Shown piece by piece: positions 10,039-17,838 of a stretch of DNA of 36,151 nt. Positions within the stretch are counted from its first letter, which is position 1. Each line of letters begins with the position of its first letter. The position numbers were made by a program, and so were the translations under genes. Origin of the DNA: a virus (Duplodnaviria > Heunggongvirae > Uroviricota > Caudoviricetes); IMG/VR virus record IMGVR_UViG_2585427765_000017; one strand, written 5' to 3'. The notes below the pieces were generated by a model that did no database searches, had not been told where the DNA came from, and worked only from the letters and a program-made list of their open reading frames with translations.

Positions 10039-10545
10039 ATGGAAATAACTAAAGAACGATTATTGGAAATAGCAAATCTTAGTGAAAGGGCATTAAGTGA
10101 TGGGAGGATTATTTCTCCTGATGCTTATGAATCAGTTACAAGTATAGAAATAATAACGATGGCCAGGATGCTTCTTGCCCGCTTCAAAAAAGAATATAAA
10201 AAACAGGTAGATAGCAATGCTAATATATATGATATTTTGGACTGTTGGGGAGCTTGGGCTGTAGCTGGAAATAGTTCTATCAACTGGCAGCAAGTGGCTG
10301 ATAAATATAAAGATGTTGTGCCTCATGGTAAAAAATTGCGTCGCCAGAGCAGCGATGATGAAGGGCGAGTGATTGATGAGTGGATATTGAGACTCAGACA
10401 ATATAAAATAGATGAATATGAGTTAATTGTTGCCCACTTTGTAATAGGCGTTTCTTTGAGAAAGATCGCAAAAAGAAAGAAATGTGCGGATGGGACTATT
10501 AGAAAAAAATACAAGCAGCGATGGGAGTATTGGAGGGAGTATTAA
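10039..10545 (+). CDS. Q-like antiterminator homologue (QuuD/PF06530-like), AT-rich, second Q-type gene in the window
   Basis: Motifs ILDCWGAWAVAGNSSINWQ, DDEGRVIDEWILRL, YELIVAHFVIGVSLRKIAKRKKCADGTIRK resemble (from memory) the ERWGAWA...DDD...YVVG... pattern of QuuD-type Q proteins. ATG at 10039 with GGAGA RBS; visibly AT-rich compared with flanks. Confidence 0.5.
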   Translation: MEITKERLLEIANLSERALSDGRIISPDAYESVTSIEIITMARMLLARFKKEYKKQVDSNANIYDILDCWGAWAVAGNSSINWQQVADKYKDVVPHGKKLRRQSSDDEGRVIDEWILRLRQYKIDEYELIVAHFVIGVSLRKIAKRKKCADGTIRKKYKQRWEYWREY

Positions 10546-10566
10546 TGCTCTAACTGTTAGAGCTAA
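10546..10566. terminator. Hairpin between convergent genes (possible bidirectional terminator)
   Basis: Perfect inverted repeat GCTCTAAC-tg-TTAGAGC sits between the stop of the Q-like gene and the stop of the minus-strand membrane-protein gene. Confidence 0.35.
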
Positions 10567-11783
10567 ATAAAAATCTTCGCAAGAAATATTCCTGCTGCAA
10601 TAGAACTTGGTAGCCAAGCCAAATACATAAATAACTTTATTGTATTATCACATTTGGTTTGGCTCTTTGATAGTTCATATAGAGCCTCATTAATGTCCTT
10701 CTTAAGGTCTTCTGGATAATTTTCATTGTTTTTTAGAAAAGGCATAAATGCTATATCTTTAGCATGGTAAATATGTTTTAATTGTTTATCCTGATTGAGT
10801 AATACCATATATAAAATAAGTGAGCTTAACAATACACCTAATAAAACGAGTAACATTTCAGATCTTGATGTTAGTTTTATAATCCCGAAGGATGCCAGTA
10901 AAGACACAGGGATTGATAATACTTTTGTCGTCAAATCAGTAATAAGTTTTGAGATTTTTTCAGCAAACTCTGCTTCAGACTTCGCAATTTCTTTTCGTGC
11001 CTTATGGAATGAAAAACCACTCATATACGTGGATAAATTATTTTCAAATAGCTTTACAAATTTATCCCAATGGCAAATTAGGTTTTCAAAATCATATTTG
11101 TTATCGAGAATAAACTCCACTATGGTATTCCTGAAAATACCTGTTTTTTCTGCTTGATGGGGGATTTGGGCGTTTTTTACATCTAAAAGACTCTTGATGA
11201 TAGCATCATCAATGTCATTTATATTGAGCATCTTAGGTGTAATGCACGTTTCTAAAATAATAGATGTTGATTTTGCGTCAGAATCTTTCACGAAAACTAA
11301 ACGATAATTTGAAGATTCCGATTTTGTATCGTGAAAGTGCGCAATCTCAGCCAGGGAAGAAATAATTGCACAAATTTTCTCGATTTTTATAATTTCGTCC
11401 GGTTTACTTGAATCAGACGGATGAAAATCCTCATCGATTATGTAATACTCTTTAGGAATTACACCTTTCTTGAGTGAGTTTATACAAAGGAACTCTTGAA
11501 TTGAGTTATAGAAACGTTCTGCTCCATTTTTAGGGGATATGTAAGTGTATGAGAATTTATCTCCAATTTTAATTGGGTGTGATTTTAAATCGTCTTCGTC
11601 AATGAACTCATTATTAATATCAACATCTTCAAAATAACCGTAGGCTTTATGTGAATTTACTAACAAGTTTACCAAACGTTGATTGTTATTATTTATTTCA
11701 ACAGTTGCAGAAAAAGAACGTCCGTCGAATTGGGGCTTCGATGATGCTCTATAAAAATCTACAACCGTTGATAAATTAGCCAT
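10563..11783 (-). CDS. Protein with about 280-aa soluble N-terminal region and three predicted C-terminal transmembrane helices; second gene of AT-rich operon
   Basis: Hydrophobic segments VLSIPVSLLASFGIIKL, MLLVLLGVLLSSLILYMVLL and IKLFMYLAWLPSSIAAGIFLAKIFI near the C-terminus. ATG (MANLSTVV) overlaps the upstream gene stop as ATGGCTAA; the track GTG start at 11795 is less likely. K/N/I/D-rich composition. Confidence 0.7.
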   Translation of the reverse strand: MANLSTVVDFYRASSKPQFDGRSFSATVEINNNNQRLVNLLVNSHKAYGYFEDVDINNEFIDEDDLKSHPIKIGDKFSYTYISPKNGAERFYNSIQEFLCINSLKKGVIPKEYYIIDEDFHPSDSSKPDEIIKIEKICAIISSLAEIAHFHDTKSESSNYRLVFVKDSDAKSTSIILETCITPKMLNINDIDDAIIKSLLDVKNAQIPHQAEKTGIFRNTIVEFILDNKYDFENLICHWDKFVKLFENNLSTYMSGFSFHKARKEIAKSEAEFAEKISKLITDLTTKVLSIPVSLLASFGIIKLTSRSEMLLVLLGVLLSSLILYMVLLNQDKQLKHIYHAKDIAFMPFLKNNENYPEDLKKDINEALYELSKSQTKCDNTIKLFMYLAWLPSSIAAGIFLAKIFI

Positions 11784-12918
11784 TTTCTTTTCCACTATCC
11801 CTTATTTTTAAATTTTCTTTTACCACAGCGCTTAGTTTAGCCTTAAATTCAGCTGGTAAGTTTGTAAATGATAATCTTCCAGTTGTTTCATCGTACCACA
11901 CATCATCATCAGCTGTCACTCCAAGGAGAGACTTGTCAAAATTAAATCCAATCTCATCAGTCTTAAAGGTGATGTTTTTAATGTCTTTCAACGCCCGTTT
12001 ACTGATAACAAATTCAGTTGGAATTCTCACATTTTCACTATTTAAAAAAAGAATTAATTCGTGAGTGTAAGATTCTTTGGTAGACTCATCTAAATTTGTC
12101 ATGTGACGTGCTGCAATTACTTCAATATCACTCAATCGGGCTGACAAATTTTTAGCTGCTTGTGTGTCTAAATATGCAATAACGTCATGTTTAAATCTAT
12201 TGGCACATGCTTTAAGTTCTGGTTTTTGGTTAAAAAATTGTTTTGCGACAGTTGGTAGTTTTTTTGTGGCTTTTGCTGCTGCAAGTGATTTGTCGCATCC
12301 TATTGCTGCAATAAAATATGCTGATGTGGATTGACCCACTCCTTTACTTACGAAACTTAGATAACTTAAGTCAATTTTTTCAGACTCATCAGCAGTTTTA
12401 TATTGTTGGTAGAGATTGAAATTTATTCTTGCTGCTTGGTGTATTTTGGATAGATCCAAATGGATCATTTCTTCAGGTTCGAGTTTGTTGCTGATAGTAA
12501 CACCATTTTTCTTTTTAATCATTGCAATTAAAAAGAATTTATTGTTATTTACAATATAGTCACAAAACACAATAAAACCACCAGATGACCAAGGTTCTTC
12601 TTTGGCTTTTTTTACAAGTTGCTTCATCACTTCAATAGAAAAAGGCACAAACTTTTCATTAATGTTATCCTCTGACTGAGAATACTCTTCAAATATTGAT
12701 GGCACAGGCCCTTGTTCTGTTTTTTCCTCTTTAAAAACGCCATAATGTGCAGAATTGCCTTTGGTTCCATATAAAGATGAAATGTCTTGAATAAGTTTTA
12801 TAACAATTGGATTGGTTTTATCGAGAGGAGTGGATCTAAGCTGATACGGCTTAGAAAAATCAAAATCCTTTTTTGCTTCTTTAATTAGTTCATGAACGAT
12901 AACTTGCTTAATTTCCAT
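11776..12918 (-). CDS. NdpA/YejK-like (NA37 nucleoid-associated protein family) homologue; first gene of AT-rich operon
   Basis: VIVHELIKEAK near the N-terminus, GGFIVFCDY and YLSFVSKGVGQSTSAYFIAAIG motifs parallel YejK IALHQLIK, GGFVLFCHY, YLTFLKGRVGRKVADFF as I recall them; AGGTGA RBS 8 nt upstream of ATG. Needs HMM confirmation. Confidence 0.65.
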   Translation of the reverse strand: MEIKQVIVHELIKEAKKDFDFSKPYQLRSTPLDKTNPIVIKLIQDISSLYGTKGNSAHYGVFKEEKTEQGPVPSIFEEYSQSEDNINEKFVPFSIEVMKQLVKKAKEEPWSSGGFIVFCDYIVNNNKFFLIAMIKKKNGVTISNKLEPEEMIHLDLSKIHQAARINFNLYQQYKTADESEKIDLSYLSFVSKGVGQSTSAYFIAAIGCDKSLAAAKATKKLPTVAKQFFNQKPELKACANRFKHDVIAYLDTQAAKNLSARLSDIEVIAARHMTNLDESTKESYTHELILFLNSENVRIPTEFVISKRALKDIKNITFKTDEIGFNFDKSLLGVTADDDVWYDETTGRLSFTNLPAEFKAKLSAVVKENLKIRDSGKENG

Positions 12919-13192
12919 ATTGAAAATATCACCTATGTTATTGTTAGATCGTTTGTGATTTTTTTACCATCACAACAACGACACAAAATCATTAATGCGT
13001 ACGCAAAAATTTTGAATAATGAGTTAATCAATGTCAATAGTTAAACACACTACCGCTGTAGAGTTGTTGTCATTAAATTGCGTCATAAGTAGAATTGCTG
13101 CGGGTGCTTGAGGCTATCTGTCTCAGGCATGAACACCAAAAGGCAGATAGATAAAAGCCCCACCCGACTATAAATCGAAGTGAGGCCCCTAT

Positions 13193-13405
13193 ATGCTCGT
13201 CACATATAGATTGCCTCTTACGGACCGAAAGGTCAAGGAGAAGCAGGCTATGAAGCAGCAAAAGGCGATGTTAATCGCCCTGATCGTCATCTGTTTAACC
13301 GTCATAGTGACGGCACTGGTAACGAGGAAAGACCTCTGCGAGGTACGAATCCGAACCGGCCAGACGGAGGTTGCTGTTTTCGTAGACTACGAATCTAGAG
13401 AGTAA
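13193..13405 (+). CDS. mok: Mok-like overlapping reading frame of the hok locus
   Basis: 70-aa frame that starts upstream of, and terminates with, the hok coding sequence, as in hok/mok/sok loci. Confidence 0.5.
   Translation: MLVTYRLPLTDRKVKEKQAMKQQKAMLIALIVICLTVIVTALVTRKDLCEVRIRTGQTEVAVFVDYESRE
13250..13405 (+). CDS. hok: Hok/Gef-family type I toxin (51 aa)
   Basis: MKQQKAMLIALIVICLTVIVTALVTRKDLCEVRIRTGQTEVAVFVDYESRE is a near-exact Hok-family toxin sequence (HokD/RelF-like from memory). Confidence 0.85.
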   Translation: MKQQKAMLIALIVICLTVIVTALVTRKDLCEVRIRTGQTEVAVFVDYESRE

Positions 13406-13414
13406 GAGTGACCT

Positions 13415-13501
13415 GGCGGGAGAGTAATCTCCCGCCACCTCTGATGTGTCGGCATCCTCAACGCACCCGCACTTAACCCGCTTCGGCGGGTTTTGTTTTT
13501 T
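13415..13501 (+). terminator. hok mRNA 3' structures: 9-bp perfect hairpin (fbi-like) plus intrinsic terminator
   Basis: GGCGGGAGA-gtaa-TCTCCCGCC at about 13415-13436 immediately after the hok stop; then AACCCGC-ttcg-GCGGGTT with a T-run at about 13475-13501. Confidence 0.5.
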
Positions 13502-13573
13502 CTGGTCGTTCTGGTTTACAATCCATCCGTCAGCCTGAACAACTGGCACCTGCTGCGCCAGCAGAGAAAACAG

Positions 13574-13852
13574 ATGGCGCACGATACCAAATTTTACAAT
13601 TCGGATAACTCTGCCGCCCCTGCCAGCAGGCACGGGCGGCGTTCTCATGCATTCAAATCTGACTGGTATCAGCACGACCCCTGCACCGAAGAACAGGCTG
13701 AATGGCTGATTCAGCGCTACCGCAGACACGGATACGAGATTAAGAAAGCCCTCAGCCTCGATTATCGTCACTGGATAATCTTCGTCAGGCTCCCTTATTC
13801 CGAACGCCCACCGCGTCCGTCCCGCACATTCCAGCAACGCATCTGGAGGTAA
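13574..13852 (+). CDS. Hypothetical nin-region protein (internal Met of track ORF 13493..13852)
   Basis: ORF MAHDTKFYNSDNSAAPASRHGRRSHAFKSDWYQHDPCTEEQAEW...; stop 1 nt before the next gene start. No family recognised. Confidence 0.4.
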   Translation: MAHDTKFYNSDNSAAPASRHGRRSHAFKSDWYQHDPCTEEQAEWLIQRYRRHGYEIKKALSLDYRHWIIFVRLPYSERPPRPSRTFQQRIWR

Positions 13853-13853
13853 C

Positions 13854-14912
13854 GTGCGGGTATTACTTCGACCTGTTCCGGTACCGGAACTTGGGCTGGT
13901 GGTGCTAAAACCGGGCCGTGAATCCATGCAGGTATTTCATAATCCTCGAGTTCTGGTGGAGCCGGAACCGAAAAGCATGCGCGGTCTGCCGTCCGGAGTC
14001 GTTCCTGCCGTTCGCCAGCCATTGGCGGAGGATAAATCATTACTGCCATTTTTCAGCGATGAGCGGGTGATTCGTGCTGCTGGTGGTGCTGGTGCACTGT
14101 CTGACTGGCTGTTACGCCACATTAAATCCTGCCAGTGGCCTCATGGTGACTACCATCACAGCGAAACCGTCATACATCGTTACGGTACCGGTGCAATGGT
14201 GTTGTGCTGGCACTGCGACAACCAGCTGCGTGACCAGACTTCCGAATCACTCGGGCAGCTTGCTCACCAAAATTTGTCAGCATGGATGATTGACGTCATA
14301 CGCCATGCAATGAATGGCACGCAGGAGCGGGAATTATCGCTGGCTGAATTATCCTGGTGGGCAACCATAAATAACGTAGCGGACGCACTACCGGAGACGG
14401 TATTACGTCGTTCTCTGGGGTTACGTGCGGAAAAAATCCGCTCGGTGTACCGCGAAAGCGACATCATACCGGGAGAGCAGACAGCCACCAGCATCCTGAA
14501 ACAGCGCACAAAAAATCTTGCGCCGTTGCCTCACGCCCACCAGCAACAGAATCCACCACAGGAAAAGATGGTGGTCAGCATTGCCGTTGATCCGGAGTCA
14601 CCGGCTCAGTATCTCCAGCGCCAGAAACCACAACGGGAAGATATGCCTGTATACACGCGTTGGGTAAAAACGCAGAAATGCATGACGTGTGGCAATCAGG
14701 CAGATGATCCGCATCACATCATTGGTCATGGACTGGGAGGGATGGGAACAAAGGCTGATGATTTGTTTGTTATTCCGCTGTGCCGTAAATGCCATAGCGA
14801 ACTACACGCCGGGGTAAAAGATTTTGAAGAAAAACACGGCAGCCAGCTGTTGTTGCTGATTCGTTTTTTAATGCACGCGAGAAATTCGGGTGTCCTGAAG
14901 TGGAAAGCATGA
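13854..14912 (+). CDS. DUF968-family protein (YdfU-like) with C-terminal Cys/His cluster
   Basis: C-terminal CMTCGNQADDPHHIIGHGLGG...LCRKCHSELH pattern; GTG start 5 nt after GGAGG; immediately upstream of rusA as in lambdoid nin regions. Confidence 0.6.
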   Translation: MRVLLRPVPVPELGLVVLKPGRESMQVFHNPRVLVEPEPKSMRGLPSGVVPAVRQPLAEDKSLLPFFSDERVIRAAGGAGALSDWLLRHIKSCQWPHGDYHHSETVIHRYGTGAMVLCWHCDNQLRDQTSESLGQLAHQNLSAWMIDVIRHAMNGTQERELSLAELSWWATINNVADALPETVLRRSLGLRAEKIRSVYRESDIIPGEQTATSILKQRTKNLAPLPHAHQQQNPPQEKMVVSIAVDPESPAQYLQRQKPQREDMPVYTRWVKTQKCMTCGNQADDPHHIIGHGLGGMGTKADDLFVIPLCRKCHSELHAGVKDFEEKHGSQLLLLIRFLMHARNSGVLKWKA

Positions 14913-15278: not shown

Positions 15279-15829
15279 TCGTAAATATGATATATCCGGA
15301 AATTACAGGCAAAAGCGGCGAGCATTTACGTCTAAAAACGCTGGAAGCCGTCTGGATCCAGGGGAAATTACGGATGTGGGGGCGTTGGTCGTATATAGGT
15401 GGTGGCAAACCAGGAAATATGTTCAATCAGTTGCTGGCATCCAAAAAACTGACAAAAACCGCGGTCAATGAAGCCCTGCGTAGAATCAGGGAGTCAGGGA
15501 TTGATAAACCAGAGCTGGAAGCATTCTTGCGAGAGATGATCGCTGGCAGACAGAAGAGCTGGTTGTCTCACTGTACTGATGCAGAGGCGTTACGCATTGA
15601 TGGGGTGATAAGTAAAGCGCTTGCACGTTATCCTGGATTGATTGATATCCTGCGGCAAAGGTACGAAGGGCGGGGGATGAGTAAACGCAAAATGGCTGAA
15701 TTGTTGAATGAGGTTCACCCTGAGTGGTGCTATGCAACATGCCGCAATCGTATAGATATGTGGCTGAGAATAGCTGAGTTTATTCTGTATCCACTGATGC
15801 GAGATGCATTTTCTTTTACTGACGCTTAG
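15275..15829 (+). CDS. Late antiterminator Q candidate (canonical position)
   Basis: About 180-aa ORF directly after rusA and directly upstream of a short non-coding stretch ending in a strong intrinsic terminator (tR'-like), the standard Q-PR'-tR' arrangement. Sequence family not confirmed. Confidence 0.5.
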   Translation: MIVNMIYPEITGKSGEHLRLKTLEAVWIQGKLRMWGRWSYIGGGKPGNMFNQLLASKKLTKTAVNEALRRIRESGIDKPELEAFLREMIAGRQKSWLSHCTDAEALRIDGVISKALARYPGLIDILRQRYEGRGMSKRKMAELLNEVHPEWCYATCRNRIDMWLRIAEFILYPLMRDAFSFTDA

Positions 15830-17588: not shown

Positions 17589-17664
17589 GGCCCTTTAGCT
17601 CAGTGGTGAGAGCGAGCGACTCATAATCGCCAGGTCGCTGGTTCAAATCCAGCAAGGGCCACCA
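17589..17664 (+). tRNA. ileZ: tRNA-Ile (anticodon CAU, lysidine type; ileX/ileZ-like)
   Basis: GGCCCTTTAGCTCAGTGG...ACTCATAATCG...GGTTCAAATCCAGCAAGGGCCACCA: acceptor GGCCCTT/AAGGGCC, anticodon loop CUCAUAA, encoded CCA; close to E. coli ileX as recalled. Confidence 0.8.
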
Positions 17665-17671
17665 TCACATA

Positions 17672-17748
17672 CCGCCATTAGCTCATCAGGATAGAGCGCC
17701 AGCCTTCGAAGCTGGTTGCGCGGGGTTCGAGTCCTCGATGGCGGTCCA
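17672..17748 (+). tRNA. argN: tRNA-Arg (anticodon UCG)
   Basis: Cloverleaf folded by hand: acceptor CCGCCAT/ATGGCGG, anticodon stem CCAGC/GCTGG with loop CTTCGAA, T-loop TTCGAGT, encoded CCA. C1-G72 start is unusual. Confidence 0.7.
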
Positions 17749-17761
17749 TTATCTGTACCCT

Positions 17762-17838
17762 GCGTTGTTAGCTCAGCCGGACAGAGCAATTGCCTTCTAA
17801 GCAATCGGTCACTGGTTCGAATCCAGTACAACGCGCCA
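17762..17838 (+). tRNA. argO: tRNA-Arg (anticodon UCU)
   Basis: Acceptor GCGTTGT/ACAACGC, anticodon stem ATTGC/GCAAT with loop CTTCTAA, T-loop TTCGAAT, encoded CCA. Confidence 0.8.

Follow-up and report, generated by a model that had tools for sequence, protein, structure and literature searches.

Organization of the locus

The window, that is, the whole 36,151-nt stretch of the virus record IMGVR_UViG_2585427765_000017 analysed here, carries on its plus strand a short toxin gene of the hok type, a mok frame that overlaps it, and a set of promoter, leader and trailer elements that together span positions 13067–13501, from the hok promoter through the T run of the terminator. A first-pass annotation of the DNA had set the limits of this locus at 13100 and 13501; the right end stands, whereas the left end has to be moved outward to the start of the hok promoter. 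All sequence and structure elements of a hok/mok/sok module are present, and the pairing between the two ends of the mRNA covaries among relatives. The source record annotates the Hok coding sequence alone; Table 1 adds positions for mok, for Sok and the Sok promoter, and for the RNA elements tac, ucb, dcb, fbi and the 3' stem-loop.

Table 1. Positions of the genes, promoters and RNA elements assigned to the locus, numbered along the window
Feature	Position	Strand	Details and basis
hok promoter	13067–13095	+	-35 TTGTCA 13067–13072, 17-nt spacer, -10 TAGAAT 13090–13095
Full-length hok mRNA, ~398 nt	13102–13499	+	5' end by alignment, 3' end by terminator
tac (translational activator element), mRNA 5' end	13102–13113	+	Partner fbi in full-length mRNA, ucb in 3'-shortened mRNA
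Metastable 5' hairpin of the nascent transcript	13102–13137	+	tac and sequence just downstream; predicted fold
ucb (anti-SD), AAGCCCC	13155–13161	+	Fold predictions
Sok target hairpin of the open mRNA	13182–13217	+	mok SD 13182–13185 paired with dcb GCCUC 13213–13217; loop CUCGUCA
mok, 70 codons	13193–13405	+	ATG 13193; stop and frame common with hok; Shine-Dalgarno (SD) GAGG 13182–13185, 7 nt upstream
Predicted Sok RNA, ~49–55 nt	13201 to ~13153 (3' end 13153–13147)	-	Ends transferred from sokW and sokC
Putative Sok promoter	13236–13208	-	-35 TTGACC 13236–13231, 17-nt spacer, -10 CAATCT 13213–13208
hok toxin gene, 51 aa	13250–13405	+	ORF list; SD AAGGAG 13235–13240
TACG motif at Tyr47, candidate TadA A-to-I site	13388–13391	+	A13389, Tyr to Cys; sequence reading
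3' stem-loop of processed hok mRNA (fold model)	13414–13437 (perfect hairpin 13415–13436)	+	GGCGGGAGA-gtaa-TCTCCCGCC
fbi (fold-back inhibitory element), CCUCAACGCACCC	13456–13468	+	Best duplex with tac
Intrinsic terminator	13475–13501	+	Stem 13475–13492, then T run; 7 pairs, 5 G-C, tail TTGTTTTTT

The Hok toxin and the mok frame

The hok product matches the Pfam profile HOK_GEF (PF01848) with 81.1 bits against a cut-off of 22 (E = 4e-23), residues 6–47 spanning the whole profile, and the open reading frame together with this match confirms the 51-aa Hok toxin named in the first-pass annotation. An identical sequence is held in RefSeq (WP_000813259.1), where it is annotated as a Hok/Gef family protein. 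Two NCBIfam models were scored below their cut-offs, namely the Hok family toxin NF007279 (53.2 bits, cut-off 73) and the HokA equivalog NF007290 (39.1 bits, cut-off 89); both are narrower than the Pfam profile, and RefSeq gives the identical protein its family name regardless. PADLOC returned no match for Hok.

The overlapping mok frame reported earlier is also present, and the layout of its 70 codons agrees with that of mokC (K-12) and mokW (Sp5) as annotated. Among the 50 loci compared, the mok start codon and the GAGG lying 6–9 nt upstream of it are kept in every one. The relation of mok to hok differs between types: the two are in frame in 19 loci (window, hokW and hokC types), mok overlaps hok in the +1 frame in a further 26 (70 codons in the R1 type, 55 in hokB), and mok is short in the remaining five. 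The in-frame mok of the window is thus a normal variant of the family, and it agrees with annotated mokC and mokW.

On the opposite strand, a 210-aa ORF (13295–13927) overlapping hok was treated as spurious, because it runs antisense to hok and to the downstream genes and because the RefSeq record of identical sequence (L001) shows no annotated gene on this strand in the region. Other records carry short 'hypothetical' or 'mobile element' coding sequences opposite the hok 3' UTR (2900–3079 in L006; 3383–3505 in L002), which are probably annotation artefacts of a GC-rich, structured UTR. Pfam has no match for the 94-aa downstream ORF.

The codon for Tyr47 contains a TACG motif that may serve as a site of TadA editing. 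Such editing has been reported at position 46 in hokC, hokD and hokE, homologous to the Tyr47 site (PMC5630033), where the edit supplies the second cysteine of the toxin (PMC5630033, PMC12214031). As the second cysteine is not hard-coded in the window, full Hok toxicity may depend on editing. In the fold of the full-length mRNA, the motif is presented in a 7-nt loop, CUACGAA; folding of the local 25-mer by itself puts it in a stem (z -0.3). The sequence of this loop is identical to that of the anticodon loop of tRNA-Arg(ACG). Because the local 25-mer gives no significant structure, the presentation of the motif in a loop is treated as a lead only.

The hok mRNA and its predicted conformations

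The hok promoter is sigma-70-like, with 10 of 12 consensus matches in the promoter scan, and its block TAAGTAGAAT is conserved in relatives. It lies 6 nt upstream of a conserved mRNA 5' end, GGGUGCUUGAGG, that lines up with the starts of the Rfam model, hokW, hokC and R1. In plasmid R1, three forms of the hok mRNA have been described: a nascent chain with a metastable 5' hairpin; a closed full-length form held by tac/fbi pairing, in which ucb masks the mok SD; and an open, 3'-truncated form with tac/ucb and SD/dcb stems, guarded from exonucleases by its last 3' stem-loop (PMC9841398). The nascent, closed and open forms predicted for the window mRNA match this scheme. Folded with no prior constraints, the full-length transcript gives -158.7 kcal/mol (z -7.6); its positions 1–12 pair with 13456–13468, and the GCC of ucb (13157–13159) pairs with the GGC (13184–13186) at the mok SD. 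When the last 42 nt are removed, the predicted fold switches to tac/ucb and SD/dcb, with ucb AAGCCCC paired to tac and the Sok target hairpin (GAGGC/GCCUC) formed; both pairings also belong to the consensus structure of the Rfam family. For the first 37 nt, the tac hairpin is predicted at -17.1 kcal/mol (z -3.7). The GCCCC of ucb is invariant in all 50 loci, and the target hairpin is the most variable stretch among close relatives.

Downstream of hok, a hairpin of ten pairs, counting the flanking U-A, begins about 10 nt after the stop (-20.5 kcal/mol, z -6.0). The first-pass annotation had noticed this element as a perfect 9-bp hairpin following the stop and had called it fbi-like. Its presence is confirmed, and the label is not: the post-stop hairpin was rejected as fbi, because the best partner of tac in the duplex search begins 50 nt downstream of the stop. 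Given this position of fbi, and given that the R1 forms are reproduced in the window folds, the hairpin is, within the fold models, the terminal 3' stem-loop of the truncated mRNA. The duplex of fbi with tac is computed at -21.5 kcal/mol and closes the full-length fold. Beyond it, the intrinsic terminator proposed earlier was recovered by the terminator scan as a stem followed by a T run.

Covariation of the mRNA ends

The pairing of the mRNA ends was followed across the family. For this, 79 loci encoding Hok relatives were collected from one-genome-per-species contigs, their leaders were located by profile, and the 3' UTR of each locus was searched for the best partner of its own 5' end; pairs were counted on an alignment of 50 distinct mRNAs. 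The 3' partner always lies 46–58 nt after the stop, and its sequence tracks that of the 5' end. In the window, hokW and hokD types, tac GGGUGCUUGAGG is matched by fbi CCUCAACGCACCC; in the R1 types, tac GGCGCUUGAGGC is matched by fbi GCCUGAAGCGCC; and the hokB types occur in two variants, one with tac GGGCGCCUGAGA and fbi UCUCAUGGCGCCC, the other with tac GGGUGCCUGAGA and fbi UCUCAUGGCACCC. Three IS-disrupted or frameshifted copies (L022, L042 and L082) were without an fbi-type partner in the 3' UTR search.

Over the 50 mRNAs, 87.7% of the cells of the tac/fbi helix are paired, and 82.5% of those of the 3' stem-loop, where changes on both sides are seen in 7 of 9 pairs; the structure scored is the window's own fold, which is hence favoured in these counts. 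A single pair of columns (4/447) illustrates the pattern: it is C-G in 28 loci, U-A in 22 and unpaired in none.

The predicted Sok antisense RNA

Both annotated antisense RNAs of the closest types, sokW (71 nt) and sokC (59 nt), begin 8 nt inside mok, at the complement of ATGCTGAAC. Alignment transfer sets the 5' end of the window Sok at G13201 (GACGAGCAUAUAGG...) and its 3' end at a U run. For a Sok RNA of 49 nt, the predicted fold has an unpaired 5' tail of 11 nt, followed by a long hairpin and a terminal UUUU (-18.7 kcal/mol, z -4.0), and the terminator scan reports a terminator-like site on the minus strand. As for the promoter, a TTGACC had been singled out as a candidate -35 at about 13225–13230; its sequence and strand are correct, and it lies 6 nt to the right of the position given. 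The Sok promoter went uncalled in the generic promoter scan, because its -10, CAATCT, agrees with the consensus at two of six positions, fewer than four. This hexamer aligns with the sokW -10, TAACCT, whose mutation (primers YO-421/422) led to loss of antitoxin activity (PMC8621323). The -10 of SokC, CACTCT, is equally poor. Invariant across the 50 loci are the first three bases of the -35 (TTG) and, in the -10, A2 and T6. The Sok promoter and RNA ends proposed here are thus putative assignments by homology to annotated sokC and sokW.

A covariance-model search for Sok, which the first-pass annotation had suggested as a check, gave a strong match to Rfam RF01794 ('sok') at 13102–13252 (+), with 109.2 bits against a gathering score of 59 (E = 3.7e-24) and model positions 1–157 of 157 covered. 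The family match thus stands, but it lies on the hok-sense strand and offers no direct antisense evidence, so that it was rejected as proof of an antisense gene. The same behaviour is seen elsewhere: RF01794 also falls on the hok strand in K-12 hokC, K-12 hokB and an R1-type locus, opposite the annotated sokC and sokB, with sense-strand matches at, for instance, 502–654 in L003 and 567–718 in L004. Since the model extends from the 5' end of the hok mRNA to the AUG of hok, what it describes is the hok leader, in which the complement of Sok is contained; the match therefore proves that the leader exists in the window. Annotation pipelines that use RF01794 would therefore put 'sok' on the wrong strand and make it about three times too long.

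Prophage context and distribution

As annotated, the surroundings of the locus are a Rac-like lambdoid prophage of E. coli adjoining potC/potD. The prophage runs from integrase, excisionase and exonuclease through dicB, racR, the replication genes and a Q-like gene to two minus-strand genes and hok, and continues with DUF968, RusA, DUF1133, a methyltransferase, three tRNAs, and the lysis and head genes. By this gene order, hok belongs to the accessory region, with the replication genes on one side and the late-control genes on the other. Two antiterminator-Q-like genes are present in the element, one matching Phage_antitermQ (10039–10545, ~40% GC) just before the AT-rich island described below and the other a DUF1133/Q-like gene (15287–15829) after RusA. 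The three tRNA genes (17589–17835; annotated Ile, Arg, Arg) lie downstream of the DNA methyltransferase gene and before the lysis genes; Stx phages carry ileZ-argN-argO at the corresponding position. In the window, no toxin gene is annotated after the three tRNAs, and a TerB-family gene comes next.

The locus is widespread. A stretch of the E. coli E203449 chromosome is 100% identical to it over 471 nt, and of 5426 complete E. coli genomes, 4947 (~90%) carry a similar locus, as do 78 phage records. Most of these loci are annotated as hokD, Hok/Gef, 'gef: phage maintenance protein' or MokW. The source genome itself has two further hok-like places. Enterobacterial-type hok loci were also met on short contigs of assemblies labelled Veillonella, Acinetobacter, Xanthomonas, Ferruginibacter, Streptomyces, Oscillibacter, Dysgonomonas and Vagococcus (L010, L025, L028, L037, L038, L039, L060 and L074), and in several of them Hok is the same as in the R1-type plasmid locus L005; contamination or mis-binning of E. 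coli or plasmid DNA is the most likely source of hok on such contigs.

On its upstream side, the locus borders an AT-rich island (~10400–13050) with two overlapping minus-strand genes (10563–12918, ~32% GC), whose products are a 406-aa protein for which Pfam has no match and a 380-aa nucleoid-associated protein (YejK/NA37). The two genes match the NCBIfam models DS1_2_antiphage (105 bits, E = 4e-30) and DS1_1_antiphage (101 bits, E = 6e-29), far under the curated cut-offs of 315 and 330, respectively, and PADLOC found nothing for either protein. DS-1 is a two-gene anti-phage system validated in the DefensePredictor study (PMC13092281). From these matches, the cassette looks like a distant, uncharacterised relative of DS-1 carried as a prophage accessory gene (moron), and in this part of the window it is a more interesting neighbour than the hok locus itself. 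The arrangement of island plus hok is also found in strain Z0117EC0005. A promoter-like site, TTGACA-17-CAAAAT, lies at 13009–13037 on the minus strand and is directed toward the NA37 gene and away from hok; with it, the 180-bp spacer 12919–13101 appears to hold the divergent promoters of the island operon and of hok.

Comparison with known hok/sok systems

The closest characterised relative is hokW-mokW-sokW of the Stx2 prophage Sp5/VT2-Sakai and of phage 933W (PMC8621323; GenBank AP000422), which like the window locus resides in a lambdoid prophage. HokW and the window Hok are both 51 aa long and identical at 49 positions, and mok is in frame and 70 codons long in both loci. The two loci agree exactly in tac (GGGUGCUUGAGG) and in fbi (CCUCAACGCACCC), and they also share the 3' stem-loop and the -10 of hok. 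The differences concern mainly the antisense region, and also the flanks: the window lacks a 21-nt insert that lengthens the SokW stem (71 nt compared with ~49 nt), the target loop reads CUCGUCA in the window and CUGAACA in hokW, the Sok -10 is CAATCT in the window and TAACCT in sokW, and the terminator and the rest of the sequence beyond fbi differ, as do the flanking genes. In Sp5, hokW-sokW has proved to be a functional type I system: the toxicity of Hok has been demonstrated, as has its neutralisation by Sok expressed from its own promoter, partly via RNase III and Hfq; after mitomycin C treatment, Sok vanishes and Hok appears in a RecA-dependent manner, and deletion of hokW-sokW delays growth arrest and halves phage release, so that its role is to aid lysis and release after induction (PMC8621323).

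The hok/mok/sok (parB) system of plasmid R1 has the same set of elements as the window, from the promoter through fbi, including tac, the metastable hairpin, ucb, the mok SD, dcb, hok and the 3' stem-loop. In both, the antisense Sok promoter overlaps dcb, the mRNA is ~398 nt long, and the same Rfam and Pfam families are matched. The R1 Hok is only 41% identical to that of the window; its mok is read in the +1 frame and stops 4 nt short of the end of hok, unlike the in-frame mok of the window; and its tac and fbi differ from those of the window yet are still complementary to each other (GGCGCUU/AAGCGCC). R1 is, in addition, plasmid-borne with proven post-segregational killing, whereas the window locus lies in a prophage.

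With hokC/mokC/sokC (gef) of K-12, the window shares the in-frame mok layout, a similar length of the Sok region and the same tac; hokC has been severed from its fbi by IS186, whereas the window copy has every element. The K-12-type HokD is identical to the window Hok at 47 of 51 residues (92%), and RefSeq names close relatives of the window locus hokD. The hokD locus of K-12 has been reported to be without canonical system components after genomic rearrangement (PMC12214031).

At the DNA level, the window locus aligns as a mosaic. Its promoter side matches a strain with the same upstream island, its Sok/target block is identical to that of a 'hokD' locus of strain E2 and likewise without the 21-nt sokW stem insert, and its C-terminal hok codons match hokW. 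Differences among the close relatives L087, L007, L006 and L008 concentrate in 13140–13215, where they affect the Sok 5' tail, the target loop and the 21-nt Sok-stem indel. This pattern suggests that variation in Sok and its target may have diversified the specificity of the antitoxins of co-resident loci. In 601 E. coli records, the 106-nt Sok region is present with an identity of at least 99%, which indicates that the window allele is common, tolerated and stably carried.

Interpretation and proposed mechanism

Taken together, these data identify the locus as a structurally complete hok/mok/sok type I toxin-antitoxin module that is an accessory gene of a Rac-like lambdoid prophage, at a probability of about 0.9. 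The type I reading is supported by the Pfam and Rfam matches, by homology to annotated and experimentally tested loci, and by the covarying pairing of the mRNA ends, and the same evidence upholds the earlier proposal of a complete hok/mok locus with a minus-strand Sok around 13150–13250. The assumption that a chance ORF and chance hairpins mimic such a locus has practically no probability left. The match to HOK_GEF and that to RF01794, with E-values of 4e-23 and 3.7e-24, lie far beyond chance when taken together with the promoter, the terminator and the post-stop hairpin. Furthermore, across thousands of genomes the DNA shows 92–95% identity to loci annotated as hokD-type or gef and 85–86% identity to 'host killer protein' and MokW loci.

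The mechanism proposed for the window is based on homology with Sp5 hokW-sokW and with plasmid R1 hok/sok, for which it has been established (PMC4147584; PMC9841398); the same two systems are the source from which Sok transcription, 3' processing, toxicity and biological role would be carried over to this locus. The hok promoter would produce a stable mRNA of ~398 nt, closed by the pairing of tac at its 5' end with fbi, close to its 3' end. As long as the mRNA is closed, ucb would mask the mok SD, so that ribosomes and Sok are both shut out. Slow trimming from the 3' end, as far as the stable hairpin at 13414–13437, would remove fbi; tac could then pair with ucb, and the mok SD would enter the target hairpin, leaving the mRNA translatable and open to Sok. 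As long as the short-lived Sok is made, it would pair across the mok start, block translation of mok and of the coupled hok, and mark the duplex for RNase III. Once the supply of Sok stops, Hok would be made and damage the inner membrane. Element loss, a block of transcription, or prophage induction, the last of which has been shown for sokW, could each bring the supply to an end.

Possible roles of the locus

The first-pass annotation had suggested that, in a prophage, the module could stabilise the element or take part in abortive infection. In the present analysis, help with lysis coupled to induction, prophage addiction, or both constitute the most likely role of the locus. Two other views of its function have to be weighed against this. 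According to one, the locus is a hitch-hiking relic that looks intact and is transcribed, and yet never kills under natural conditions. This is unlikely, and it is kept in consideration because several chromosomal hok loci are phenotypically silent: chromosomal hokA, hokB and hokC, whose architecture is similar, gave no post-segregational killing or rifampicin activation, as cited in a preprint (bioRxiv 10.1101/2025.08.07.668861). The weak Sok -10, and Tyr47 in the place of a hard-coded second cysteine, would fit such a silent locus as well. The window copy, however, has no IS insertion, frameshift or missing element, unlike K-12 hokC with its IS186 or the frameshifted copies L042 and L082; its structural elements still covary; and the near-identical hokW-sokW is active from its native prophage (PMC8621323).

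The other view, that the main function is defence by abortive infection, possibly exerted jointly with the adjacent DS-1-like cassette as a small defence island, is less probable still. R1 hok/sok on a high-copy plasmid is cited as having reduced T4 plating; the two neighbouring genes match the anti-phage models DS1_1 and DS1_2 at E-values around 1e-29; and the combination of island and hok recurs in another strain. Those matches are nevertheless far below the curated cut-offs and find no counterpart in PADLOC, most relatives carry hok without the island, and in the prophage homologue that has been tested, the effect is to promote the release of phage, not to block it. In addition, a survey reports that hok is not enriched near defence systems (bioRxiv 10.1101/2025.08.07.668861).

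A more far-reaching idea concerns the mosaic structure. If the locus is a recombinant, exchange of the Sok/target block could give co-resident prophages antitoxins that are mutually blind, each prophage having its own addiction or lysis switch, and the switch of the window might even act with the DS-1-like cassette; this is a speculative and rather doubtful proposal that starts from the distribution of sequence differences.

Altogether, the locus is already known in kind, being an ordinary member of the best-studied type I toxin-antitoxin family. The practical value of the analysis lies in annotation, and its value for discovery is small, as RefSeq already contains the identical protein and a near-identical prophage locus has been tested. 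For the biology of the prophage, the module may influence the timing of lysis or the retention of the element in its host.
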